A stretch of 64,000 bases of DNA from Alphaproteobacteria bacterium (GTDB lineage: Bacteria > Pseudomonadota > Alphaproteobacteria > Rs-D84): positions 13,968 to 77,967 of the forward strand of contig JAFXPG010000010.1 in assembly GCA_017528045.1 (NCBI GenBank). Direction: 5' to 3'. Shown here one piece after another: positions 24,188-62,646 of this stretch (positions within the stretch are counted from its first letter, which is position 1; every line of letters begins with the position of its first letter). The notes under the pieces were generated by a model that searched no databases, was not told the origin of the DNA, and saw only the letters and a list, made by a program, of their open reading frames with translations. Both the position numbers and the translations under genes were made by a program.

Positions 24188-24505
24188 TTATTGTTCAACA
24201 CTTGCTATTGCATGTTTATTAACTTCAATAACAACGCCTTTTGCGATTTCTAAATTTATTGTTGTTTCATTTATTTTTTTTACAGTTCCATAAATACCTG
24301 CAGCCAACACACGATTACCTACCTTGATATTACTTAACATTTTTTCATATTCGGCTATACGTTTTTTATTTGGACGCACCATAAAGAAATACAAAATAGC
24401 CATCACAACAAGACAATAAATTATTAATCCCCAAGAATTACCTTGTTGGGCAATAATGTCAGCGTTTTGACTTACTTGATTTGCAACTTCCGCTGTTTGA
24501 TTCAT
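24188..24505 (-). CDS. yajC: preprotein translocase subunit YajC
   Basis: Single TM followed by MVRPNKKR..., the YajC signature. ATG 24505 is preceded by AAGGAGA; the upstream extension to 24586 is unlikely. Confidence 0.85.
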   Translation of the reverse strand: MNQTAEVANQVSQNADIIAQQGNSWGLIIYCLVVMAILYFFMVRPNKKRIAEYEKMLSNIKVGNRVLAAGIYGTVKKINETTINLEIAKGVVIEVNKHAIASVEQ

Positions 24506-24617
24506 GAATGATCTCCTTTTTTTATAAGAATAGACTAGTAAAAAAACAAAGATAAGTAAAGCACGAATTTTCGTTATTGCGCGCATTAAGAAAATTCATT
24601 AAACCCCTATTTTATTC

Positions 24618-24646
24618 TTGTGTAAAAAAATGGGTTTTGCTAAAAT
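24618..24646 (+). promoter_or_regulatory. sigma70-like promoter of leader/cassette A (TTGTGT-17 nt-TAAAAT)
   Basis: Hexamers with 17-nt spacing. The -10 lies 6 nt upstream of the conserved GTCAG, the same geometry as in copy B. Confidence 0.55.
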
Positions 24647-24652
24647 CACATC

Positions 24653-24865
24653 GTCAGAAAGAGTTTTTCTGATGGGGTGTCAAGGCCCGTTCAGCATGCG
24701 TCTGTGTTACGGACGTTAAATATCTCCAACTAAAACATGGTTGGAGGGTTGCGATATACATAAATAAGCACACAATTTCATGTTGAATTGTCTTGAACCT
24801 CCAACCGCCTGAATTTTTCCGGCGGTTCTTTAGTTTTTGCTGCAGTGAAACAAAAAAGGGAAACC
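24653..24865 (+). promoter_or_regulatory. conserved structured 5' leader (candidate attenuator / riboswitch-like element), copy A
   Basis: G+C-richer non-coding stretch. Hairpins P1 24654-24672, X:Y 24724-24730/24740-24746 and P4 24772-24791, alternative strand X' 24798-24806, and a terminator. Colinear with copy B on the opposite strand. Confidence 0.6.
24803..24838 (+). terminator. leader (attenuator) intrinsic terminator, copy A
   Basis: AACCGCC-11 nt-GGCGGTT followed by TCTTTAGTTTTT, about 30 nt upstream of the start codon. Confidence 0.65.
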
Positions 24866-25624
24866 ATGAAAAGATTCATATTATTTATACCTGTATCATT
24901 TATGTGCACATTTGCATTTGCACATACAATAAATTGGCATGTTGATGGCAATACATATCAAACAACAACATGTAATATCGGTAATGATGTGATACTGCCA
25001 AACACACCAACAAAACGCGGATATACATTTAAAGGTTGGGAAGAAGAACATTTTTTAAGGGGTCAATTTGAAACATGGACAGATGTTCCAACAACAGACT
25101 TAAGGTATTTACGTGATATTTATAACAATCGTGTTCCAGCCCACTCAGATTACATTATCGTAGAAGATGCCAGTGATTACGTTCCTCTTACATTCAATGA
25201 TAGTTTTGAATTTTGGAATGTATCACATAATTATCAAACTATATGGGCACACAGATATAACGATACAACCGTACAAAAATCAGTGGTATATACATCTGGT
25301 AATGCGCTTAAACCAGAAGAGAATTGGTGGGATTATTTTGGTCCAAATAACGAAATATTAATAAAACGTATAAACGGAAATATAATTGTAATTGCTCAAA
25401 CAACGTTGCGCTTTAATGGGCAAGCATATACTTCAGGACAAACCATATTATCAACAAATCTAAACGATTCATCAAATGATCATAATACACATGTTGTTGA
25501 ATTTTTATCAGGTACATATCAAACAATAGAAGGCAGATGGAAATTTATTTATTCTGGTACATGGGACACAGATGGAAAAATTGGTTGGATACCAGATCAA
25601 CAAATTTCAAATACACTTGAATAA
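24866..25624 (+). CDS. secreted protein with N-terminal Listeria-Bacteroides (InlB B-repeat-like) repeat; cassette A gene 1
   Basis: Signal peptide MKRFILFIPVSFMCTFAFA. TINWHVDGNTYQTTTCNIGNDVILPNTPTKRGYTFKGW fits the P..P.K.GY.F.GW repeat pattern (Flg_new/PF09479-like). The remaining ~190 aa are unrecognised. Paralog of 55955..56695. Confidence 0.6.
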   Translation: MKRFILFIPVSFMCTFAFAHTINWHVDGNTYQTTTCNIGNDVILPNTPTKRGYTFKGWEEEHFLRGQFETWTDVPTTDLRYLRDIYNNRVPAHSDYIIVEDASDYVPLTFNDSFEFWNVSHNYQTIWAHRYNDTTVQKSVVYTSGNALKPEENWWDYFGPNNEILIKRINGNIIVIAQTTLRFNGQAYTSGQTILSTNLNDSSNDHNTHVVEFLSGTYQTIEGRWKFIYSGTWDTDGKIGWIPDQQISNTLE

Positions 25625-25628
25625 TGAC

Positions 25629-26363
25629 ATGAAAATATTTTTGATTTATGTTTTTATTTTATTACCAAGTTCTGTTGTTGCAGAACCCCTGTTTAACACA
25701 GACATTATTAATGGTTGTGGAAACAGTTCTTATTACAAAGCTATCTTAGAAACAAATACTTATAATTGTTCAAATGGTTATTATTTACCAGCTGGTGGAA
25801 TATCTTGCGAAACTTGTCCGATTAATCATACCTGCAATGGTGGATTTTTTGTATACAACCCCACTATAACTCAGGGTTTAGAAGATGGAAATATACTTGT
25901 TCAAAATGTTACAGGTGGCTGTTTAAATAATTTTGGTCAAAACTTTTCTGCTGTATTTATTTTAAATAGTTATAATTGTTCACCCGGTTATTACTTACCT
26001 GCGAACTTTGATGAATGTCGTCCATGTTTATTAAATCATTATTGCGTTGGTGGAACGTATAGTTTTAATGAAACAACCGATCAAGGTATAGAAGAATGTC
26101 CATCAATGCGACCATTTGCACCGGTTAATTCGGATATATGTTATGCACATATATTACATGTTGGTAACGATATAATATATTTGCGTTCTAATAAATTAAC
26201 CACACCATCTTTAAATGTTGCATATGGAAATGAAGTATTTTATACGAATATGACAACGACACCAACATACATGACGTCCGGTTCATCGCATTATTTCAAA
26301 ACGATTTATAATAACACAGAATATTATATTTGTGATGATACAACATATAATGTTGAAGATTAA
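25629..26363 (+). CDS. secreted Cys-rich protein with two furin-like/ephrin-receptor-like (GCC2_GCC3-like) repeats; cassette A gene 2
   Basis: Signal peptide MKIFLIYVFILLPSSVVA. Two repeats of YNCS.GYYLPA-x5-C-x2-C-x2-NH-x-C-x-GG...N.T..QG.E. 13 Cys in the mature part. Paralog of 55203..55958. Confidence 0.6.
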   Translation: MKIFLIYVFILLPSSVVAEPLFNTDIINGCGNSSYYKAILETNTYNCSNGYYLPAGGISCETCPINHTCNGGFFVYNPTITQGLEDGNILVQNVTGGCLNNFGQNFSAVFILNSYNCSPGYYLPANFDECRPCLLNHYCVGGTYSFNETTDQGIEECPSMRPFAPVNSDICYAHILHVGNDIIYLRSNKLTTPSLNVAYGNEVFYTNMTTTPTYMTSGSSHYFKTIYNNTEYYICDDTTYNVED

Positions 26364-28108
26364 ATTCGTTCGAACATAGCGTCTAATTCAGATATTGGTA
26401 TAACCTTATATACAGGCCTTCCATGGTTACATTCCCCACCCCGCTCTGTTCTTTCTATATCACGTAAAAGTGCATCCATTTCATCCATATTCAATTTGCG
26501 ACCAGCCCTGACAGAATGGTGACACGCATAATTTGCCAATTTTAAATGCAATTTTTCATTTAATCTGGATGAATGGCCATATGCCCTGACCTCATCTGCA
26601 ATTTCATGAAAACAAACTTCCCAATTTAAATCCCAATCTGCCGGCTTTTCAAATATAGCCAATGCATTTTCACCAAACGCATCAACATGTAATCCAGATT
26701 GTTTTAATTCATCTTGGATAGATAGAACAGAATCAACATCTTCACTTTTTAATTTTATAACCAAAGGTGTCAACAAAGGTTGTGTTTTTATAGCGTGCGT
26801 TCTTAATTTTTCATAAGTTATTCTTTCATGTGCAGCATGTTGATCAATTATAACGAAACCATCTTTATTTTCAGCCAAAATATATTTATTGTTTAATTGT
26901 CCAATTACATGTCCCAAAGGCATATCAAAATCAGATTCTGTTGTAATTGTTTGTGTTGTTGTTATATTTTCTGAATTTGTTGGTATATGAATGTTTTCAA
27001 CAGATACTTTAGGTGAAGCCACAAAACTTTTGGCATAATTATTTTGATTTGTTGTATTTGTGTTAAAAAATGTTTGTACCATTGGCATTTCAAAAGCATT
27101 TGGTGTTTTTTCAAAATTATTATTAACAATATTTTGATTTAATGTTTTTGATAATGCTTCACGTAAAGTTTTTATAATAAAAGCACGAACATGTGTTGGT
27201 TCCAAGAAATGAACTTCTGTTTTTGCTGGGGACACATTTACATCAACATTACGAGATGGCATATCCAAATACAAAGCACACAATGGAAATTCACGCGCAT
27301 GCATAACATCCATATAAGAAGCACGTAATGCAGCAACTAAAATTTTATCTTTCACAGGTCTATTATTAACAAACAAATATTGATCTATGGAAGATGCCCT
27401 TCTTAAAGTTGGTTTAGATATAAAACCATGAATATGCATATCCGAAGAAGAAGATACAGAATTTATTTCCAGCATTTGTCCACGAACATCTTCACCCATA
27501 ACAGAAATTACACGTTCTATTAAATTTTGGTTTTTAGGGAAAAACCATTTGTTATTCAAAACGAATCCAACATCAGGACGTGCCACAGCCAATCTTTTTA
27601 CAGTATCTAAAACAGAAAGCATTTCTGCTTTATCTGTATGTAAAAATTTCAACCTAGCAGGTGTTTTACCAAATAAATTAGAAACTCGAATACGTGTTCC
27701 ACTTTCCCAATCAGATGGTTTTATTTCATTATTATCAACTTCAAAACACCAGCCATTTGAATCTTTACCATTATTTGTATCTATGACCATATTTGAAACA
27801 GAAGCAATAGAAGGCAGAGCTTCACCACGAAATCCCATAAAATTAATATTCAATAAATCATCTGTTGGTAATTTTGATGTGGCATGTCTTAAAACACAAT
27901 TTGCCAAATCTTCTTTGTTCATTCCTTTACCATTATCTATTACAGATATCATTGTTCTTCCACCATCAACAACATCTATAACTATCTGGTCTGCACCAGC
28001 ATCCAAGGCATTTTCAACCAATTCTTTAACCACGCTAGATGGTTTTTCAACAACCTCTCCAGCTGCTATTTGGTTAATCAAAAAATCTGGCAAAACGCGA
28101 ACAGACAT
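26360..28108 (-). CDS. mutL: DNA mismatch repair endonuclease MutL
   Basis: GHKL ATPase N-terminus (IAAGEVVEKPSSVVKELVENALDAG). C-terminal domain with DQHAAHERITYE endonuclease motif and CNHGRP. Confidence 0.92.
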   Translation of the reverse strand: MSVRVLPDFLINQIAAGEVVEKPSSVVKELVENALDAGADQIVIDVVDGGRTMISVIDNGKGMNKEDLANCVLRHATSKLPTDDLLNINFMGFRGEALPSIASVSNMVIDTNNGKDSNGWCFEVDNNEIKPSDWESGTRIRVSNLFGKTPARLKFLHTDKAEMLSVLDTVKRLAVARPDVGFVLNNKWFFPKNQNLIERVISVMGEDVRGQMLEINSVSSSSDMHIHGFISKPTLRRASSIDQYLFVNNRPVKDKILVAALRASYMDVMHAREFPLCALYLDMPSRNVDVNVSPAKTEVHFLEPTHVRAFIIKTLREALSKTLNQNIVNNNFEKTPNAFEMPMVQTFFNTNTTNQNNYAKSFVASPKVSVENIHIPTNSENITTTQTITTESDFDMPLGHVIGQLNNKYILAENKDGFVIIDQHAAHERITYEKLRTHAIKTQPLLTPLVIKLKSEDVDSVLSIQDELKQSGLHVDAFGENALAIFEKPADWDLNWEVCFHEIADEVRAYGHSSRLNEKLHLKLANYACHHSVRAGRKLNMDEMDALLRDIERTERGGECNHGRPVYKVIPISELDAMFERI

Positions 28109-28109
28109 A

Positions 28110-28580
28110 TTAATCCTTGAATTTAACATCAACTATTTCAAATTCTTTCTCACCACTTGGTAATCTTACAGTGCAAGTATCACCAACACAATGCCCTATT
28201 AACGCACGACCAACAGGTGAAGTACAAGATATAATCATACGACCATCAGATTCTATATCTGACAAAATACGGCATTCCATTTTATTACCATCTTCATCTT
28301 CTGTTATAACTTTTGCACCAAAAACAACCCTGTCTCCTGAAAGAGAATCTATGTCTATAACTTGTGCGTTTTCTATTATTGATTCAATAAATTGAATACG
28401 TTTATCAATTTGACGTTGTTTTTCTTTAGCTGCGCTGTAATCTGCATTTTCAGATAAATCACCCAAGGAACGCGCCCATTGAACAACTTTTAATATTTCT
28501 GGTCTTTGATTTTCTTTCAAATCTTTTAATTCTTTTACCAGCGCATCAAAGCCCTGACGAGATATCGGTTTCTTTTCCAT
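28110..28580 (-). CDS. greA: transcription elongation factor GreA
   Basis: N-terminal coiled coil with DLSENADYSAAKE and a C-terminal FKBP-like domain. ATG 28580 (MEKKPISRQG). Confidence 0.9.
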   Translation of the reverse strand: MEKKPISRQGFDALVKELKDLKENQRPEILKVVQWARSLGDLSENADYSAAKEKQRQIDKRIQFIESIIENAQVIDIDSLSGDRVVFGAKVITEDEDGNKMECRILSDIESDGRMIISCTSPVGRALIGHCVGDTCTVRLPSGEKEFEIVDVKFKD

Positions 28581-49553: not shown

Positions 49554-49584
49554 AAAAACACCGGCAAATGCCGGTATTTTTTTA
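49552..49584. terminator. bidirectional terminator AAAAAAACACCGG-CAAATG-CCGGTATTTTTTT (recurrent motif, copy 2)
   Basis: Hairpin between convergent mnmE and the acyl-CoA ligase. Confidence 0.7.
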
Positions 49585-51162
49585 TTCTTTTCTGTCTGGA
49601 TATTGACCAGCAATTAAGTTCTTTCGAACAACATGGTGTTTAACCTTTTGTGTACTGGTCATTGGTAAATCTTCAGTTGTCATTGCAAAATGCGTTACCC
49701 ATTTATATGAAGCAACTTTTTTATTTTGTTCTGCAATTTCTTTTGACAATTTATCCAATGTCATATCTTTATCAACACTGAACACACCGTATGCAACTGT
49801 TTTATCACCTACTTTATGTTCGAATACCGCGACATTTTTTACACCTGGAATTTCAATGAATAAACCTTCCAGTTCATCTGGATATACGTTTTTACCAGAA
49901 TCTAAAACAATTACTTGTTTTTTACGTCCAGCAAAATGTAATTCTCCGTTTTTATCCATATACATCATATCGCCAGTATTAAACCAACCATCTTGATCAA
50001 ATACAGTTGCATTAACTTCATCATTATTCATATAACCATTGAAAACTTGATGCCCACGCAACCATAAAACACCTACACCATTTTCGTCTTTATCACGAAT
50101 TTCACATTCGTTATTAGATGTTGGAGCACCAACTGAATAAGCCAATCTTTTATTGGTTGGTTTTGAAATACAGATTGGTCCTACTGTTTCTGTTAAACCA
50201 TAACCTTGTATAAAAGATAAACCCAAAGATTCATAGAAATTTTCAACTTCTGGTTTAGTAGCTGCACCACCGGCAATTAATAATTTAGCACGTCCACCAA
50301 AAACACTTAAAATTGGTTCTTGCACTTTGCGAACAAAGAAATCTAAGCCCATATCTTTTAATGTTTTTTGATTTCTTAAAATAAATGATGCGACACGCCA
50401 TTTACCTTGTTCTTTCATTGTTGTAACAATTTTATTACGGAACAATTCCCAAACACGTGGAACAGCCGGTATAACATGTGGTTGGAATTTTTTGAAATCG
50501 TCCAAGATATATTTAGGATTAACCGTTGGTTGCAAAACCAATGATGCGCCATAATGAACAGTTGCCAAAATACCAATAGCAAAACCGAATATATGATACA
50601 AAGGTAAAAAACCATACATAACATCACCTGAATGAAAATATTCAGACATATCTTCCAAAGAATTTGCACATTCTGTTAAGTTAAAATGTGTTAAAGGAAC
50701 AACTTTTGGTGTTCCTGTGGAACCAGAGGTGAAAGATAAAGTTGCGATATCTGTTGATTCAGAAGCATAAGGTCTTAAATCATAATTTATATCGCCATCT
50801 TTGCTGGTAATATCATAAAATTTAAATTTTTTTGTTTTATAAAAGAACGATGGTTCTGCACAAACAAATTTACATCCAGCAATTTCACACATTTTATCGT
50901 ATTCCAAAGGTGTTAAATTTGTATCTAACATCAATACAGTTCCACCCAAATACCATACAGCAAATAAAGTCAATGGAAATTGTGGAATATTATGCGATAA
51001 AATTCCAACAATATCACCGTGTTTAATACCTTCTTTGTGTAAACTTGCAGCCCTTGCACGAACTTGTTCAATGAATTGAGAATAAGTTACGTTTTCACGA
51101 ACCAAAAATAAATTTTCTGGCCATTGATTAACTGCATTTTCTAATTTTTGATACATATTCAT
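49582..51162 (-). CDS. AMP-dependent synthetase/ligase (FadD-like acyl-CoA or acyl-ACP synthetase), paralog 1 of 3
   Basis: SFTSGSTGTPK (AMP motif I), QGYGLTET, TGD, GRKKQVIVLDSGKNVYP. Confidence 0.85.
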   Translation of the reverse strand: MNMYQKLENAVNQWPENLFLVRENVTYSQFIEQVRARAASLHKEGIKHGDIVGILSHNIPQFPLTLFAVWYLGGTVLMLDTNLTPLEYDKMCEIAGCKFVCAEPSFFYKTKKFKFYDITSKDGDINYDLRPYASESTDIATLSFTSGSTGTPKVVPLTHFNLTECANSLEDMSEYFHSGDVMYGFLPLYHIFGFAIGILATVHYGASLVLQPTVNPKYILDDFKKFQPHVIPAVPRVWELFRNKIVTTMKEQGKWRVASFILRNQKTLKDMGLDFFVRKVQEPILSVFGGRAKLLIAGGAATKPEVENFYESLGLSFIQGYGLTETVGPICISKPTNKRLAYSVGAPTSNNECEIRDKDENGVGVLWLRGHQVFNGYMNNDEVNATVFDQDGWFNTGDMMYMDKNGELHFAGRKKQVIVLDSGKNVYPDELEGLFIEIPGVKNVAVFEHKVGDKTVAYGVFSVDKDMTLDKLSKEIAEQNKKVASYKWVTHFAMTTEDLPMTSTQKVKHHVVRKNLIAGQYPDRKE

Positions 51163-51183
51163 TTTTGTTACCTACTTTCTTTA

Positions 51184-52764
51184 TTAGTCATGTCTTATCG
51201 TATATTTACCATCAATCAACCATTGACGAACGACATGGTGTTTTATTTTTTGTGTACTGGTCACAGGCAAATCATCTGTTGTTAAAGCAAAATGTGTCAC
51301 CCATTTATAAGAAGCAACTTTTTTATTTGTATTAGCAACTTGTGCTGCTAATTTATCAATACTCATTCCTTCTTCTACACTGAACACACCGTATGCAACA
51401 GTTTTACCACCTATTTCATGTTCGAATACAGCTACACTTTTTACACCTGGAATTTCAATGAATAAACCTTCCAGTTCATCTGGATATACGTTTTTACCAG
51501 AATCTAAAACAATTACTTGTTTTTTACGTCCAGCAAAATGTAATTCTCCGTTTTTATCAATTGATACCAAATCACCTGTACAGAAAAAACCATCTTTATC
51601 AAAAGATTCTTTGTTGGCTTCATCATTATTCAAATAGCCACCAAATATTTGGTTTCCACGAACCCATAACATACCTATTCCATTTTCATCTTTATTACGG
51701 ATTTGAATTTCAGTATCACCCATTGGTGCACCAAAAGCATAAGGAATACGTTTTTTCAAAGGTCTTGAACAACATATTGGACCAACGGTTTCTGTCATTC
51801 CATATCCTTGAACAAAAGCCATTCCCAGTTGTGTATAAAATTTTTCAACTTCTGGTTTAGTAGCTGCACCACCTGCAACTAATAATCTTGCACGTCCACC
51901 AAAAATAGAACGAATTTGATTAAGAACTTTATCAACTAATTTTCCCAATCCAACCAATCGCAATACTTTTTGATTATTCATGATGAAAGATACTAACCAC
52001 CACTTCTTTTTTGCTTTTACACCTTCAATAATTTTTTTACGGAATATTTCCCATAACTTTGGTACGGCAGGTATAACTTGTGGTTTATATTTTGCAAAAT
52101 CAGCCATAATCGCATTAGGATTAATCGTAGATTGCAATAATATTCCCATACCAAAATGCAATGGTGCCAAAAATCCAACAGCAAAACCAAACACATGGTA
52201 TAATGGTAAAAATGCATAAAACATTTCACCAGGTCTTAACCATTGATTTAAATATTCCAAATTATCAGAACAAGAAACTAAATTAAAATGAGTCAAAGGA
52301 ACCACTTTTGGTGTTCCCGTGGAACCAGATGTAAAAGACATAGTTGCAACATCTTCATCTTTCAAAGGATAAGCTTTTAAATTTTCGTCTGTATTTTCAT
52401 CTTTTGTTTCTATATCAAAAAACCTAAAAGTTTCAGTTTCATAAAAGAATGATTTTTCAGCACATACAAATTTACAATCTGTGGTTTTAGTCATATTTTC
52501 ATATTCAACAGATGTTAAATTTGTATCTAATAACAAAACAGTTCCACCCAAATACCAAATTGCAAATAAAGTAGATACAAATTCTGGTATATTGTGTGAT
52601 AACAAGCCAACTACATCTCCAGGTTTAACACCTAAATCACGTAAAGTAGTTGCACGTGCTTGAACCATTTTTGGAAAATCTTCAAAAGTTATATTTTCAC
52701 GAACAAGAAATACTGTTTTTGGATTTCTTGTAACGTTTTTTTCCAATAATTGATACATATTCAT
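51184..52764 (-). CDS. AMP-dependent synthetase/ligase, paralog 2 of 3
   Basis: Same motifs as paralog 1. TAATG stop/start overlap with paralog 3. Confidence 0.85.
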   Translation of the reverse strand: MNMYQLLEKNVTRNPKTVFLVRENITFEDFPKMVQARATTLRDLGVKPGDVVGLLSHNIPEFVSTLFAIWYLGGTVLLLDTNLTSVEYENMTKTTDCKFVCAEKSFFYETETFRFFDIETKDENTDENLKAYPLKDEDVATMSFTSGSTGTPKVVPLTHFNLVSCSDNLEYLNQWLRPGEMFYAFLPLYHVFGFAVGFLAPLHFGMGILLQSTINPNAIMADFAKYKPQVIPAVPKLWEIFRKKIIEGVKAKKKWWLVSFIMNNQKVLRLVGLGKLVDKVLNQIRSIFGGRARLLVAGGAATKPEVEKFYTQLGMAFVQGYGMTETVGPICCSRPLKKRIPYAFGAPMGDTEIQIRNKDENGIGMLWVRGNQIFGGYLNNDEANKESFDKDGFFCTGDLVSIDKNGELHFAGRKKQVIVLDSGKNVYPDELEGLFIEIPGVKSVAVFEHEIGGKTVAYGVFSVEEGMSIDKLAAQVANTNKKVASYKWVTHFALTTDDLPVTSTQKIKHHVVRQWLIDGKYTIRHD

Positions 52765-54362
52765 TATAAACGCTCCCGTAATTTATCAGTGTTATCTGGA
52801 TATTTACCATCAATCAAATTTTGACGTACTTCATGATGTTTTACTTTTTGAGTACTGGTCATCGGTAAGTTATCTGTTGTCATTGCAAAATGTGTTACCC
52901 ATTTATATGGTGCAACCTTACGATTAGCCAGCGCAACTTGTGCTGCTAATTTAATTAAACTTACACCTTTTTCAACTTGGAACACAGCATATGTCACAGT
53001 TTTATTTTTTACTTTATGTTCAAACACAGCAACGTTTTTAACACCATCTATTTCCATAAATAATGCTTCTAATTCATCTGGATAAACATTTTTACCAGAA
53101 TCTAAAACAATTACTTGTTTTTTACGACCTGCGAAATGATATTGATTATATTTATCTAAATAAACCAAATCACCGGTATTAAACCAACCATCTTTATCAA
53201 AAGATTCTGCATTTGCATTTTTATTATTTAAATAACCATTAAATACATTTGGTCCACGTACCCATAATGTTCCAATACCTTTTTCATTTGCATCGCGTAT
53301 TGTACATTCAGAACAACCTATGGGTGTTCCAAAAGCAAACGGCACACGATGTTTAGCAGGACGAGAGCAACAGAATGGACCAACAGTTTCAGTCATTCCA
53401 TATCCTTGAACAAAAGTTATACCCAAAGATTCATAGAATTTTTCAACTTCTGGTTTAGTAGCTGCACCACCTGCAATCATCAAATTTACACGACCACCAA
53501 AAATATCACGCAAAGGTTTTTGAACTTTAGCAACTAATTTTTTCAAACCAATTGCGCGTAAAAATTTTTGATGACGTAAAACGAACGATACAAACCACCA
53601 CATACGTTTTGCTTTAACACCTTCGATAATTTTATTACGAAAAACTTCGTATAATCTTGGTACCGCAGGAATACAATGAGGTTTATAAACTTTAAAATCT
53701 TCCAAAATGTATTTTGGATTAACACTTGGTTGTAATAAAATTCCCATATGGAAATACATTGGTGCCAAAATACCACCGGCAAACCCAAATATATGATACA
53801 AAGGTAAAAATCCATACATTATTTCATTTTTATGTAACCATTTACCCATATCTGCATAATAATCAGAAGAAGTCTTTAAATTACCATGAGTCAAAGGAAC
53901 AACTTTTGGTGATCCAGTAGATCCAGAAGTAAAAGACATTGTTGCAACAGCATCTTCTTTCAATTTTACAGATTTTAATTTTGCATCAGCTTTTTCATCT
54001 TTTGTTTCTATATCAAAAAATTTAAAACCTTTTGCTTTATAGAAAAAAGATTTTTCTGCACATACAAATTTACATTTAACCGTTTTAGTCATATTATCAT
54101 ATTCAAATGGCGTCAAATTTGTATCCAGCAATAAAACTGTGCCACCCAGATACCATATAGCGAAAAGAGTCAACGGAAATTCTGGAATATTATGTGCCAA
54201 CAACCCAACAACATCACCTGCTTTTACCCCTGCTTTATGTAATGTGGTTGCACGTGCATGAACCATTTTCAGAAAGTTTTTAAATGTGATCTTTTCACGT
54301 ACCAAATACAAAGCATTAGGCGATTCTTTCGCCACCTGCTCTAAAACGTGATACATATTCAT
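52764..54362 (-). CDS. AMP-dependent synthetase/ligase, paralog 3 of 3
   Basis: SFTSGSTGSPK, QGYGMTET, TGD, GRKKQVIVLDSGKNVYP. Confidence 0.85.
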   Translation of the reverse strand: MNMYHVLEQVAKESPNALYLVREKITFKNFLKMVHARATTLHKAGVKAGDVVGLLAHNIPEFPLTLFAIWYLGGTVLLLDTNLTPFEYDNMTKTVKCKFVCAEKSFFYKAKGFKFFDIETKDEKADAKLKSVKLKEDAVATMSFTSGSTGSPKVVPLTHGNLKTSSDYYADMGKWLHKNEIMYGFLPLYHIFGFAGGILAPMYFHMGILLQPSVNPKYILEDFKVYKPHCIPAVPRLYEVFRNKIIEGVKAKRMWWFVSFVLRHQKFLRAIGLKKLVAKVQKPLRDIFGGRVNLMIAGGAATKPEVEKFYESLGITFVQGYGMTETVGPFCCSRPAKHRVPFAFGTPIGCSECTIRDANEKGIGTLWVRGPNVFNGYLNNKNANAESFDKDGWFNTGDLVYLDKYNQYHFAGRKKQVIVLDSGKNVYPDELEALFMEIDGVKNVAVFEHKVKNKTVTYAVFQVEKGVSLIKLAAQVALANRKVAPYKWVTHFAMTTDNLPMTSTQKVKHHEVRQNLIDGKYPDNTDKLRERL

Positions 54363-54432: not shown

Positions 54433-55206
54433 ATGAAAATATTGACATTAAACATAAACTCTATACGTGCCCATATTGAAAGTTTTATGGATATTTTACG
54501 TTCTGGTGAATACGACACAATATTAGTTCAAGAATTAAAAGTAGAAAATGCTAATTTTCCATATAATTTATTAGATGAATATGGTTACAACATCAAAATT
54601 TTTGGTCAAAAATCTTGGAATGGTGTTGCAATATTTTCTAAACATTCAATTGAAGACGTTACAATGGGTATGCCAACATATCCAGATATAAATTCCAGAT
54701 TTCTTGAATGTGTAATTGATGGTCATGTTCGTGTAATTAATGTATATATGCCAAATGGTGACAATATAGAATCACCAAAATTCCCATATAAATTAGAATG
54801 GATGCGTGCTTTTACCGAATACATCAAACAATACATTGATTCCGAAGAACCGGTCATAATTGGTGGCGATTACAACGTATCTATTGAAGACAGGGATATT
54901 TGGAACCCTAAAAATTATATAGGGTCTTCTATTTCAGCACCGGCAGCACGCGAAATAATGCAACAATGGCTGGATTCTGGTTGGATTGATGCATGGCGTA
55001 CATTACATCCGGATGAAAACGATTATACTTGGTATGGGTATCGTGGCCGAGACACAGTTGGCAACAACCAAGGTTTAAGACTAGATTATTTTTTATGTAA
55101 TAAACGCGCAGCTAAAATAATTAAAAATTGCGAAATAGACAAAGAACCACGTCTGGCCGAAAAACCAACCGACCATTGTGGTTTAATGATTGAATTGAAA
55201 GATTAA
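54433..55206 (+). CDS. xth: exodeoxyribonuclease III
   Basis: EEP-fold motifs: LNINSIRA, VQELK, NGVAI, GGDYNV, and C-terminal TDHCGLMIEL. Confidence 0.9.
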   Translation: MKILTLNINSIRAHIESFMDILRSGEYDTILVQELKVENANFPYNLLDEYGYNIKIFGQKSWNGVAIFSKHSIEDVTMGMPTYPDINSRFLECVIDGHVRVINVYMPNGDNIESPKFPYKLEWMRAFTEYIKQYIDSEEPVIIGGDYNVSIEDRDIWNPKNYIGSSISAPAAREIMQQWLDSGWIDAWRTLHPDENDYTWYGYRGRDTVGNNQGLRLDYFLCNKRAAKIIKNCEIDKEPRLAEKPTDHCGLMIELKD

Positions 55207-55958
55207 TCATTTCTACATTCTGGAACACTATCATCACATATTAAATATTCGACATCACCAATCATTACATGTAACCCTTTTGACATACCTTCGGACATTT
55301 TTGGAAAAGTATATGAATTCATGTCTCTGGGGACTGCATTTGCCGAATATATACCGTTATGGTGTCCAATAAATAATCTATGGACTGTTGGATGTGCTGG
55401 TGATTGGTGCATGTATAAAATATCTTCACCAACATGTAATTTTCGACCACATTGACTTGACAGCCACATGCCAGCCGGAGCAAATGGATGGTTGCCCGGA
55501 CATTCTATGATTCCTTGTGGTGTTGTTTCATTAAATGTTAAATTACCACCAGGACAATAGTGGTCATTTAAACATTTTGTACATTCAACACTATTTGCCG
55601 GCAAATAATAACCAGGACTACAATTACGTTCCGCAATCTTAAAGTTTGCATATAACATCCTTGGGAAATTTTCAGAACAAACATTGTTGGCTGATTTTGT
55701 TATCTTTTGTGTATAATCTATTCCCGAAGATTTAGTTTCGTTAAATAATAATTCACCACCAGAACAAGTATAACCATTTGGGCAATTTGAACAAACAACA
55801 GAATTCGCGGGTAAAAATTGATTAATATCACAAACTATAGATTTATTAGAAAATTTTGCCACAAGCTGCAAACCATAAAAACATTCTATTTTATCATCCG
55901 CAAAAACAGACGAAAATAAAAATAAAAACACTGTAAAAAACATAATTTTTATTATCAT
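55203..55958 (-). CDS. secreted Cys-rich protein with furin-like/ephrin-receptor-like repeats; cassette B gene 2
   Basis: Signal peptide MIIKIMFFTVFLFLFSSVFA. Repeat NCSPGYYLPANSVECTKCLNDHYCPGGNLTFNETTPQGIIECP plus a degenerate first repeat. 14 Cys. Paralog of 25629..26363. Confidence 0.6.
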   Translation of the reverse strand: MIIKIMFFTVFLFLFSSVFADDKIECFYGLQLVAKFSNKSIVCDINQFLPANSVVCSNCPNGYTCSGGELLFNETKSSGIDYTQKITKSANNVCSENFPRMLYANFKIAERNCSPGYYLPANSVECTKCLNDHYCPGGNLTFNETTPQGIIECPGNHPFAPAGMWLSSQCGRKLHVGEDILYMHQSPAHPTVHRLFIGHHNGIYSANAVPRDMNSYTFPKMSEGMSKGLHVMIGDVEYLICDDSVPECRND

Positions 55959-56695
55959 TGGTTTCCACCTAAATATTTTTCAGCAACCCATCCATTCTTT
56001 CCTGAGGCATCCCAATTATCAGACTGATATGAGAATCTCCAAGTACCTTCATAACCACTCTGTCCTGTAAAGTTGATTTCTTTATATAATGTTTCTTGAG
56101 ATGGTCTCGCGTAATGCCACTGTAATGCGATTTCATTGATTGGTTTTACTACACCATCTACAATTACTGGTACATCTAAAGGTGTCAATTTCCAAACTTC
56201 ACTAGCATAAGTAATTCTCAATTGATTACCATTAGTACCAATTATAAAACCTTTTGCACCTCTTTGAAAAACTTCATTGTGATTTAATGTTATATCAGTT
56301 GCACCAAATACAAATCTCGCAAATGCAGTACCACCACTCATTGGTTCGTTATAAATTTGTATAGGCATACCAGGTTTTACATAACCACTTGGATCTTCAA
56401 CTACCATATAATCTATATATGTTGGTTTAGTACTACCTGTATAATCTGGATAATAACTTCTATAATCTGTTGGTACTGTATCCCATGTACTAAATTTACC
56501 ACGATAAAAACTTGCGATCCAACCATCAAAATCATAACCGTGTTTTGATGGTTGGATTACTGGCAAATCTAAATCTTGGCCTATTTCACAAGTTGTTTGG
56601 TCATATAATTCGCCATCTTTATACCAATCCAGATTTATCGTATCTGCATTTGCGCCGAAACACAGCATTGATAATATTATTAAAATCTTTTTCAC
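55955..56695 (-). CDS. secreted protein with InlB B-repeat-like N-terminus; cassette B gene 1
   Basis: GTG 56695 follows AGGGAGAAAA. Signal peptide (V)KKILIILSMLCFGANA. TINLDWYKDGELYDQTTCEIGQDLDLPVIQPSKHGYDFDGW. C-terminal GTWRFSYQSDNWDASGKNGW parallels GRWKFIYSGTWDTDGKIGW of copy A. Confidence 0.6.
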   Translation of the reverse strand: MKKILIILSMLCFGANADTINLDWYKDGELYDQTTCEIGQDLDLPVIQPSKHGYDFDGWIASFYRGKFSTWDTVPTDYRSYYPDYTGSTKPTYIDYMVVEDPSGYVKPGMPIQIYNEPMSGGTAFARFVFGATDITLNHNEVFQRGAKGFIIGTNGNQLRITYASEVWKLTPLDVPVIVDGVVKPINEIALQWHYARPSQETLYKEINFTGQSGYEGTWRFSYQSDNWDASGKNGWVAEKYLGGNQ

Positions 56696-56895
56696 GATTT
56701 TCTCCCTGTTTGCTTTCAACAAAACACCGCCAGAAAATCGGGCGGTTGGAGGTTAGTTACAATTTAAACGGAAATTGTGCGCTTATTCAATATATTCACG
56801 ACCCTCCAACCATAACAGAGTTGGAGATTTTTTCGTCTTTACTTTGACGCCGTTTAATCGGGTAACTACACCCCATCAGCAAAACTCTTGCTGAC
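56696..56895 (-). promoter_or_regulatory. conserved structured 5' leader (candidate attenuator / riboswitch-like element), copy B
   Basis: P1 56876-56894, X 56820-56826, Y 56802-56811, P4 56759-56778 and X' 56744-56752. Colinear with copy A. Confidence 0.6.
56718..56747 (-). terminator. leader (attenuator) intrinsic terminator, copy B
   Basis: On the minus strand: AACCGCC-CGATTTTCT-GGCGGTG followed by TTTTGTT, about 20 nt before the start codon. Confidence 0.6.
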
Positions 56896-62463: not shown

Positions 62464-62538
62464 GCGAGCATAGTTCAAAGGCTAGAATGCAAGCCTTCCA
62501 AGCTTGAAATGAGGGTTCGATTCCCTCTGCTCGCACCA
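62464..62538 (+). tRNA. tRNA-Gly (anticodon UCC), CCA encoded
   Basis: Hand-folded cloverleaf: acceptor GCGAGCA/TGCTCGC, anticodon stem CAAGC/GCTTG with loop CTTCCAA, T arm GAGGG-TTCGATT-CCCTC. 75 nt. Confidence 0.9.
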
Positions 62539-62559: not shown

Positions 62560-62646
62560 GGGCGTGCGCCGGAGTTGGAGAGCCGGGGCAGACTGTAAAT
62601 CTGTTGTCTTACGACTGAGGTGGTTCGAATCCACCCACTCCCACCA
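62560..62646 (+). tRNA. tRNA-Tyr (anticodon GUA), long variable arm, CCA encoded
   Basis: Acceptor GGGCGTG/CACTCCC (one C-U mismatch at 4:69), D stem CCGG/CCGG, anticodon loop CTGTAAA, 14-nt variable arm, T arm GGTGG-TTCGAAT-CCACC. 87 nt. Confidence 0.85.

Follow-up and report, generated by a model that had tools for sequence, protein, structure and literature searches.

In this study, we address what is encoded by a pair of small genes that stands behind a structured leader RNA in a 64,000-nt stretch of contig JAFXPG010000010.1, from an alphaproteobacterium of the order Rs-D84 (hereafter the window, meaning this whole stretch; G+C content 31.9%). The pair, which we call cassette A, consists of gene 1A (24866-25624, forward strand; 252 aa, ATG start, TAA stop), whose product has a signal peptide, an InlB-type B-repeat and a variable head, and gene 2A (25629-26363, forward strand; 244 aa, ATG to TAA), whose product has a signal peptide, two Cys-rich repeats and a C-terminal beta-sandwich domain (CTD). 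Throughout, signal peptides were called by inspection and a crude rule only. By sequence comparison, cassette A is one copy of a lineage-specific unit made up of a promoter, an attenuator leader of approximately 200 nt and two translationally coupled genes for Sec-exported proteins. We suggest, with a probability of roughly 0.55, that the two products are surface-exposed bipartite binding proteins of a partner-dependent bacterium.

The coupling of the two genes is tight. Open reading frame (ORF) coordinates confirm the statement of an earlier, sequence-only reading of this DNA that gene 2 begins 4 nt after gene 1: the intergenic gap is exactly 4 nt (TGAC), and a putative ribosome-binding site, AAGGGA at 24856-24861, ends 5 nt before the ATG of gene 1A. 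The products are identical to the NCBI entries MBR3510966.1 ('InlB B-repeat-containing protein', gene 1A) and MBR3510967.1 ('hypothetical protein IKN73_02795', gene 2A), and an exact-sequence look-up of gene 2A among contigs gave no match. A second gene pair, cassette B, lies on the reverse strand at 55203-56695, between addB and xth. It is formed by gene 1B (55955-56695; 246 aa), a paralogue of gene 1A (tblastn E 9e-22, approximately 30% identity), and gene 2B (55203-55958; 251 aa; MBR3510996.1), a paralogue of gene 2A (tblastn E 1.7e-39, 36-38% identity), and the start of gene 2B overlaps the stop of gene 1B by 4 nt. The mechanically assigned start of gene 1B, a TTG at 56722, falls within the leader terminator tail; the true start is probably the GTG at 56695, which has a ribosome-binding site, AGGGAGA, and gives the canonical signal peptide MKKILIILSMLCFGANA, followed by D.

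The same arrangement was found well beyond the window. In an iterative hidden Markov model search over all ORFs, a gene 1 homologue stood directly upstream of a gene 2 homologue in 54 fetched loci, which is essentially every fetched locus with enough upstream DNA, and the distance from the gene 1 stop to the gene 2 start was mostly between -8 and +7 nt. The proposed two-gene pairing is thus conserved and tightly coupled. The genes have kept intact ORFs throughout the loci fetched, also in all four cassettes of the metagenome-assembled genome (MAG) to which the window belongs; this MAG holds at least 4 cassettes, each preceded by the leader. Other MAGs carry more, with at least 12 loci in RUG12675, at least 9 in SRR873609_bin.15 and at least 6 in JAZURV01, all of these counts being lower bounds from a pattern scan. 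An apparent fusion of gene 1 and gene 2 in one locus (L033) was rejected, as it looks like intergenic read-through with the second signal peptide intact. In another (L046, 2277-4193), three genes follow each other, namely a gene 1, a gene 2 variant that ends in a B-repeat and a gene for a short protein with one repeat and the CTD.

Homologues of gene 2A at 45-63% identity (n=183 in a collection of 5.8 billion proteins) come nearly all from gut and rumen metagenomes, and a scan of one genome per species gave 61 loci, all of them in Candidatus Enterousia or in MAGs of alphaproteobacteria or proteobacteria that stem from rumen, faeces and human gut. Genomes of the order Rs-D84 are mostly smaller than 1 Mb, and a partner-dependent lifestyle is suspected for these bacteria (PMC12306168). 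The suggestion that the DNA stems from a host-associated bacterium, made initially from the letters of the window, is therefore borne out by its placement in Ca. Enterousia/Rs-D84, with gut and rumen genomes below 1 Mb.

Both proteins also begin as had been claimed, with Sec-type signal peptides: gene 1A with MKRFILFIPVSFMCTFAFA followed by H (residues 1-19, cleavage site AFA/H; 24866-24922, forward strand) and gene 2A with MKIFLIYVFILLPSSVVA followed by E. The pattern recurs across the family, and Sec-type N-termini were seen in both partners of the other gene pairs inspected too. No lipobox of the form [LVI][ASTG][GA]C was found by inspection at the signal-peptide end in gene 1 or gene 2. 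In the signal peptide of gene 1, a bulky residue stands before the Cys (F-M-C, F-I-C) and an A-x-A site comes after it, and the gene 2 signal peptide has no Cys.

The second element that defines the unit is the leader. The region of approximately 200 nt upstream of both window cassettes has a column identity of 78%, and covariance-model searches place leader A, with helices P1-P6 and a terminator, at 24639-24840 on the forward strand (177.6 bits, E 3.7e-55) and leader B at 56909-56712 on the reverse strand (190.1 bits). When aligned, 29 leaders share a fold of seven helices. A long-range helix among these shows two-sided changes in 11-13 sequences per pair and one-sided changes in none. With the curated structure, 92.7% of the cells of the independent MAFFT alignment of the 29 leaders are paired and double changes occur in 24 of 43 pairs; the covariation score in this alignment is 0.32, compared with 0.15 after shuffling and approximately 0.055 with slid partners. 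In a model-fitted alignment of 51 sequences, the paired fraction is 95.8%, with double changes in 33 of 40 pairs. The terminator helix is itself 93.7-95.4% paired, with compensatory changes.

These helices include a set of mutually exclusive pairings. Helix P4 (CTCCAAC ... GGTTGGAGGG; 24724-24748, forward strand) is 100% paired in the 29 sequences, and its 3' arm, GGTTGGAGGG, has two possible partners, CTCCAAC, with which it makes P4, and ACCTCCAACC at 24797-24806. The latter segment overlaps the 5' arm of the terminator, and the resulting 9-bp antiterminator pairing is kept in 99.6% of cells; antiterminator partner and overlapping intrinsic terminator (AACCGCC/GGCGGTT followed by a T-run) together occupy 24797-24838 on the forward strand. 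The three segments involved co-vary by subgroup, being CTCCAAC, GTTGGAGGG and CCTCCAACC in one and CCCTGAC, GTCGGGGAG and CTCCCCGACC in the divergent one. Leader A has a minimum free energy of -65 kcal/mol (z -5.2; leader B, z -4.9), and the minimum free energy folds of both window leaders are the form with aptamer and terminator.

Upstream of leader A lies a putative sigma-70-type promoter, TTGTGT-17 nt-TAAAAT (24618-24646, forward strand), read from the sequence, and promoter B (TTTACA-17 nt-TATAAT; 56930-56902, reverse strand) was found by a promoter and terminator scanner with 11 of 12 matches; of these two promoter-like sites, that of leader B is strong and that of leader A weaker. The same scanner called neither the promoter of leader A nor the terminators of the two leaders, the latter because of an overlong loop and an interrupted T-run. 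As its loop and T-run rules missed them, promoter A and the leader terminators rest on conservation and not on the scanner; in the alignment of the 29 leaders, a TAnAAT box is kept approximately 7 nt before helix P1. Attenuation by a leader peptide was considered and rejected, as the ATG of 'ATGGGG' is not conserved (ATT, GTT, ACG, TTG and others) and leaders A and B do not have the same short ORF. No match to the leader was found in Rfam 15; leaders A and B and that of one further locus (L044) gave nothing meaningful at E<=10, including the c-di-GMP classes. On its conserved alternative pairings, the leader has a riboswitch-type attenuator architecture and is a strong candidate for an orphan riboswitch, for which a small molecule, a protein or an RNA is equally possible as effector.

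In 49 of the loci fetched via gene 2, among them 20 with divergent copies, the covariance model found the leader immediately before gene 1; a covariance search with default filters gave no match at four others (L032, L034, L038 and L055). In the window, the leader occurs at the two cassettes only. These 2 copies in 64 kb compare with at least 12 in one MAG, and an exact-pattern scan yielded at least 120 leader-bearing stretches in metagenome contigs. For each leader among the matches listed, we took the nearest downstream ORF of 110 aa or more and classified the resulting 98 ORFs as gene 1-like (40), gene 2-like (8) or other (50). By the crude rule, signal-peptide-like N-termini are present in 87 of the 98 listed ORFs, compared with 17 of the 57 long ORFs of the window. 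A Pfam search of 17 of the other ORFs found no domain except in one Opacity/porin-like protein. From the classes of downstream ORF, we therefore propose that the leader governs a set of genes for exported proteins, a regulon in which the cassette is more frequent than any other member. The description of the leader as a dedicated RNA switch accordingly holds for the structured RNA with its terminator and antiterminator and fails for the word dedicated, as about half of the listed downstream ORFs encode other, orphan proteins, mostly with signal peptides. One leader (117.5 bits) was seen on an IMG/VR contig classed as viral (L187, 9512-9715, reverse strand), where it precedes a 171-aa ORF without signal peptide and a lipoprotein gene.

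Within this conserved frame the two proteins diverge to very different degrees. Across cassettes, the median identity is 48% for gene 2 and 30% for gene 1, and in 99% of cassette comparisons the identity is higher for gene 2 than for gene 1; within gene 1, the B-repeat has a median identity of 43% and the remainder, the head, one of 25%. At least two types of gene 1 head exist. Both window cassettes have type I, and type II is marked by the motifs EYLESTGTQYIDTG and LVRDFIPVLD...FYYN.GTG.FIAGP. When the two types were compared with hhalign, only residues 1-62, that is the signal peptide and the B-repeat, aligned (probability 99.8); homology between the type I and type II heads was rejected, as there was no alignment beyond these residues.

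Orthologous loci show what this means for a single cassette. In one locus (L035), a cassette lies between addB and xth as in the window, the flanking genes being 72% and 89% identical to those of the window and gene 2 60% identical. Only the first 55 aa of its gene 1 align to the window's gene 1, and a type II head follows in place of type I. In a second locus (L021), the gene 2 beside xth is closer to gene 2A than to gene 2B, and in a third (L026), beside a mutL that is 77% identical to that of the window, gene 2 ends in a B-repeat and not in the CTD. Heads and CTDs thus differ at orthologous loci, and we therefore regard the unit as a conserved scaffold with exchangeable parts that are reshuffled among paralogues.

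Gene 1 owes its conserved part to a known family. The N-terminal segment TINWHVDG...GYTFKGW is present as described, and its assignment to the Listeria-Bacteroides repeat (Flg_new) was right: residues 20-78 of gene 1A (24923-25099, forward strand) match Pfam PF09479 with 35.6 bits (E 1e-8), for which the gathering score is 27 bits. The score of gene 1B is only 19 bits against the same gathering score, and 49 of 50 gene 1 family members match Flg_new at E<=0.01. Furthermore, a type I profile built from 14 close relatives matches the solved InlB B-repeat 2Y5P (E 3.7e-5, profile positions 22-63), as does the type II gene 1 profile at E 0.0033; among PDB sequences, this B-repeat was the only match of the family profiles. 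In the AlphaFold2 model of gene 1A, the predicted local distance difference test (pLDDT) score is 35-45 over residues 6-59, which is too low to say whether the B-repeat has a beta-grasp fold.

The type I head of gene 1A (residues 79-252; 25100-25621, forward strand) comprises approximately 175 aa and is beta-rich and fast-evolving. It has no match in Pfam, PHROG, NCBIfam or PADLOC. The AlphaFold2 model of gene 1A, based on 14 homologues, is poor (mean pLDDT 62.9), its confident conserved core being limited to residues 60-100 and 220-250, and a Foldseek search of this model against the PDB gave nothing at E<=0.001, the best matches being galectin-type jelly-rolls at a non-significant E of approximately 0.1. 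The term 'lectin-like', where we apply it to the head, is meant as a lead from the model and not as a result. The mature gene 1A protein has one Cys, and because of this only gene 2 is disulfide-rich; the earlier description of a pair of disulfide-rich proteins does not apply to gene 1. An intermolecular disulfide between the single conserved Cys of gene 1 and the odd number in gene 2A was rejected as well, as the number of Cys varies among gene 2 relatives (12, 13 or 14) and is 14 in gene 2B.

In gene 2A, the two modules of the type YNCS-GYYLPA...C..C..NH.C.GG are present. The Cys-rich repeats occupy residues 24-88 and 92-158 (25698-26102, forward strand), as defined by an internal repeat test and by the invariant Cys; the internal Smith-Waterman score is 149, compared with 30.5 +/- 6.1 in 2000 shuffles (z 19.5). 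Each unit has five conserved Cys, giving ten that are invariant in the family, and a length of approximately 65-70 aa, so that the claim of a repeated Cys module stands with regard to two copies and their significance and has to be amended with regard to the unit length, which had been given as approximately 45 aa. Residues 32-230 of gene 2A also hold nine N-x-S/T sequons, among them an F-N-E-T in the second Cys-rich repeat that is nearly invariant; at the corresponding place, the first repeat has N-P-T, which is not a sequon, although the family consensus there is also F-N-E. These sequons could reflect an AT-rich composition or a glycosylation site.

The resemblance of the repeats to known families is weak. 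Against Ephrin_rec_like/GCC2_GCC3 (PF07699), gene 2A reaches 14.9 bits over 19 residues, with a gathering score of 23.1, and 1 of 69 gene 2 relatives matches this family at E<=0.01. For TNFR_c6 (PF00020), no match was found in gene 2A and the best relative has 20.2 bits (gathering score 29.4); NCD3G gave sub-threshold matches only, in relatives of gene 2. The nearest Pfam family of the repeat is DUF7631 (PF24634), which 30 of the 69 relatives match at E<=0.01 and whose gathering score of 27 is reached by P0021 (35 bits), P0018 (29.6 bits) and P0013 (27.0 bits); gene 2B has 20 bits, under the gathering score, and gene 2A has no match at E<=1. On these profile scores, the gene 2 family borders on DUF7631, with gene 2A a divergent member at best. 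The AlphaFold2 model of gene 2A is considerably better than that of gene 1A (mean pLDDT 83.6, 69 homologues); Foldseek searches with it against the PDB and BFVD gave nothing at E<=0.001, and the gene 2 family profile had 0 matches among PDB sequences at E<=10. The non-significant best fold matches in the PDB are TNFR2, EphA4, 4-1BB and Elapor1 (E 0.5-2.4, template modelling (TM) score approximately 0.2; for TNFR2, E 0.5 and TM 0.18-0.24). The resemblance to ephrin-receptor-like (GCC2_GCC3) repeats that the sequence-only reading had seen therefore survives as a non-significant lead at the level of the fold and lies below the Pfam threshold, and a 'TNFR-like' stalk is likewise a lead suggested by the model and not a result.

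The Cys-containing tail LHVG...YYICDD that had been noticed at the end of gene 2 is present and is the best-predicted part of the model. It belongs to the CTD (26106-26360, forward strand), a conserved domain of approximately 80 aa with nearly invariant motifs, predicted to form a six-stranded beta-sandwich at approximately residues 170-235 with a pLDDT of 94-98. Homology between the CTD and the B-repeat was rejected, as hhalign aligns the signal peptides only.

The same modules are found in many other proteins. When the gene 2 family profile was searched against 1.84 billion cluster representatives, 1249 proteins matched at E<=1e-3 and 181 at E<=1e-30; the notion that such repeats are rare in bacteria does not hold here. 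Many of the matches are signal-peptide proteins of 1-6 kaa (thousand amino acids) with up to 31 matched stretches, and the same CTD module ends many secreted proteins of 0.7-5 kaa: in at least 20 of 57 proteins of at least 700 aa, the last repeat and the beta-sandwich lie no more than approximately 12 residues from the C-terminus. Other giants, in the set P0173-P0306, end in a B-repeat or in a third Cys-rich module ('...KKCER.C.PG...W'). Partner domains in the giants are Flg_new, DUF285/BspA-like and Laminin_G_3-like, together with a terminal Endonuclease I, which by Pfam follows the CTD in P0261; the C-terminus of P0266 is near-identical to that of P0261. P0211 is among the relatives that join gene 2-type modules to DUF285/BspA-type repeats. 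A smaller example (L061, 1678-3330), whose gene stands directly behind the same leader RNA, has 550 aa with a signal peptide, BspA/DUF285-like leucine-rich repeats (LRRs), one Cys-rich repeat and a C-terminal B-repeat. These architectures place the modules among domains that are usual in surface and adhesion proteins of bacteria. This is our main argument for function, and it is an indirect one.

Taken together, these data would fit the following model. By default, the leader would form the aptamer and the terminator and expression would be off; a ligand or factor would shift the balance to the antiterminator, and the cassette family and other secreted or outer-membrane genes behind the same leader would be switched as one regulon. 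Once exported, the gene 2 protein would form a stalk that is stiffened by disulfides and carries a domain for anchoring or docking at its end, and the gene 1 protein would be a variable, probably lectin-like binding head, attached via its conserved B-repeat. The two proteins, jointly or in parallel, would decorate the cell surface and bind structures of a partner or host, and recombination among paralogues would diversify their specificity.

Several observations weigh against this model. No homology or fold search assigns a function to either protein, the model of the gene 1 head is weak and the Foldseek matches of both proteins are all non-significant. Neither a lipobox nor a beta-barrel nor a recognizable outer-membrane or secretion-system signal was found in either protein, and therefore the proteins could be periplasmic or released. 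That gene 1 binds gene 2 is a part of the model that we infer, and the divergences of the two genes correlate weakly (Spearman 0.25). In addition, many cassettes carry a gene 2 variant without the CTD, which weakens a strict role of the CTD as an anchor, and the direction in which the leader would switch is deduced from folding energies only.

The absence of a detected outer-membrane anchor also gives some credit to the idea that the proteins are secreted or periplasmic and capture nutrients such as glycans, the leader then being a metabolite riboswitch for scavenging. Standard transporters for sugars, amino acids and peptides are reportedly missing from Rs-D84 genomes (PMC12306168). Carbohydrate-binding jelly-rolls are the best, if weak, fold matches of the gene 1 head, the leader is riboswitch-like and one leader-controlled gene is porin-like. 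However, the cassettes contain no transporter partner, heads that give way to unrelated folds at orthologous loci are more usual among surface recognition proteins than in nutrient binding, and the same modules occur in giant multi-domain proteins with BspA/DUF285-like repeats; on balance, we consider nutrient capture unlikely. We hold it to be more doubtful still that the proteins act inside the envelope, for example as periplasmic structural or stress proteins, and that their variability reflects relaxed constraint in a symbiont with a small population. Such a role would agree with the lack of an assigned function and of a detected surface signal, and with the fast evolution of reduced genomes. 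Relaxed constraint would be difficult to reconcile with intact ORFs that retain signal peptides, B-repeat, Cys pattern and CTD, and with a head that alone diverges or is replaced while flanking genes remain 72-89% identical; moreover, 6-12 copies in a genome of approximately 1 Mb argue for selection.

Two further explanations take the variability of the head as their starting point. A conserved N-terminus with a hypervariable, swappable C-terminus, encoded in multiple copies by tightly linked genes, is also what would be expected if gene 1 were a polymorphic toxin or bacteriocin and gene 2 its helper or immunity protein. But no toxin, nuclease or peptidase family was found in any head, PADLOC gave no match, and gene 2 is conserved, exported and not tightly co-varying with the head, which is the opposite of a cognate immunity protein, so that this explanation is very improbable. 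Least credible of all, in our view, is that gene 1 is a remnant of the receptor-binding protein of a phage or gene-transfer agent and gene 2 a chaperone or tail component. Head swapping does resemble that of receptor-binding proteins, one type II head weakly matches a PHROG virion structural protein (E 0.0016), and the cassettes of two loci (L003 and L004) lie near capsid-like and cell-wall hydrolase genes. Both proteins nevertheless carry Sec signal peptides, and the window cassettes are surrounded by housekeeping genes, secDF-yajC and mutL in the case of cassette A and addB and xth in the case of cassette B; tblastn against 50,697 phage genomes gave no match, IMG/VR contained no relatives of the proteins, and the window proteins had no match in PHROG.

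We therefore continue with surface-exposed bipartite binding proteins as the preferred reading and compare them with known systems. As in internalins, the InlB B-repeat/Flg_new repeat of gene 1 stands in an exported protein beside what would be a binding domain. In contrast to internalins, gene 1 has a single repeat directly after the signal peptide, has no LRR, inter-repeat region or GW/LPXTG elements, and belongs to a Gram-negative host; furthermore, unlike in InlB, the B-repeat is all that is conserved in a protein whose remainder can be replaced, and it serves also as an alternative C-terminus of gene 2 variants and of the giants. Gene 2 shares with TNFR, ephrin receptors, Elapor and DUF7631 proteins tandem Cys-rich modules of approximately 65 aa with conserved spacing, but differs from TNFR and ephrin receptors in being bacterial, Sec-exported and joined to a novel C-terminal beta-sandwich. 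Relatives of the cassette proteins combine the same modules with the DUF285/BspA repeats of BspA-like surface proteins of gut and oral bacteria and of Mycoplasma, which suggests the same niche, whereas the window cassette itself has no LRR.

At the level of the gene family, Anaplasma msp2/p44, Borrelia vls and Mycoplasma vsp/vlp are multigene systems of variable surface proteins in host-associated bacteria with reduced genomes. The cassettes resemble them in having many paralogues in a small genome, conserved export or anchor parts, hypervariable parts and exchange between paralogues. However, each cassette is a complete unit with its own promoter, leader, signal peptides and starts, two proteins are involved and there is no expression site fed by silent cassettes. 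Promoterless silent copies were not seen, 49 loci, with all four cassettes of the window's MAG among them, carrying the full leader and complete ORFs with signal peptides, and neither phase-variation repeats nor invertases were seen at the cassettes. With regard to control, c-di-GMP-I and c-di-GMP-II riboswitches precede genes for surface proteins such as adhesins and pilins in Clostridioides and Vibrio. The leader is similar in being a structured 5' region with an intrinsic terminator and in that one RNA class stands over surface functions; it differs in matching no Rfam 15 family and in a copy number that is unusually high for the genome size. A literature search found no publication on DUF7631, on this protein family or on the leader. 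The parts are thus familiar, namely a B-repeat, a Cys-rich repeat and an attenuator; their combination, the copy number in a genome of approximately 1 Mb and the orphan RNA are new.

Ca. Enterousia/Rs-D84 bacteria are widespread in the guts of livestock and humans, and the cassette family, which amounts to approximately 2% of such a small genome, is the foremost candidate for the interface with a partner, because the proteins are exported and have a conserved scaffold with exchanged heads. It offers concrete proteins to express, and the Cys-rich repeat with the CTD represents an uncharacterized domain family with more than 1000 representatives. The shared leader is an attractive riboswitch candidate because of its clear expression platform, its many copies in a small genome and its regulon of secreted proteins, and would provide a handle on what these uncultured bacteria sense. 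More tentatively, and with odds that we would put clearly below even, the data may point to a lineage-wide surface 'adhesome' of perhaps 20-30 genes per genome of approximately 1 Mb under one new riboswitch class, with the cassette as its most frequent member, in which gene 2 forms a TNFR-like disulfide stalk ending in a novel kind of anchoring domain, gene 1 with interchangeable lectin-like heads is docked via its B-repeat, and a partner or host signal or a second messenger is the ligand of the leader. If this were true, a gut alphaproteobacterium that depends obligately on a partner could use the adhesome to select its partner cell and keep hold of it.

Some features of the surroundings of the cassettes may be added. 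Cassette A is flanked on one side by yajC (24188-24586, reverse strand) and is convergent with mutL (26360-28132, reverse strand) on the other; the stop codons of gene 2A and mutL share bases at 26360-26363, and there is no space for a terminator between the two genes, which reflects a very compact genome. Next to cassette B, three tandem paralogous AMP-binding genes (acyl/aryl-CoA ligase-like; 526, 526 and 532 aa) adjoin at 49582-54362 on the reverse strand. In L003 (1-1143 and 8691-8750) and L004 (86-2813), a cassette stands beside genes with Phage_T7_Capsid, Phage_capsid_2 and Hydrolase_2 domains, and the cassette of L003 lies 4 kb from a reverse-transcriptase (RVT_1) gene. Finally, at gathering scores an Rfam scan of the whole window returned only two tRNAs, the adjacent genes for tRNA-Gly(TCC) at 62464-62538 and tRNA-Tyr(GTA) at 62560-62646, both on the forward strand.

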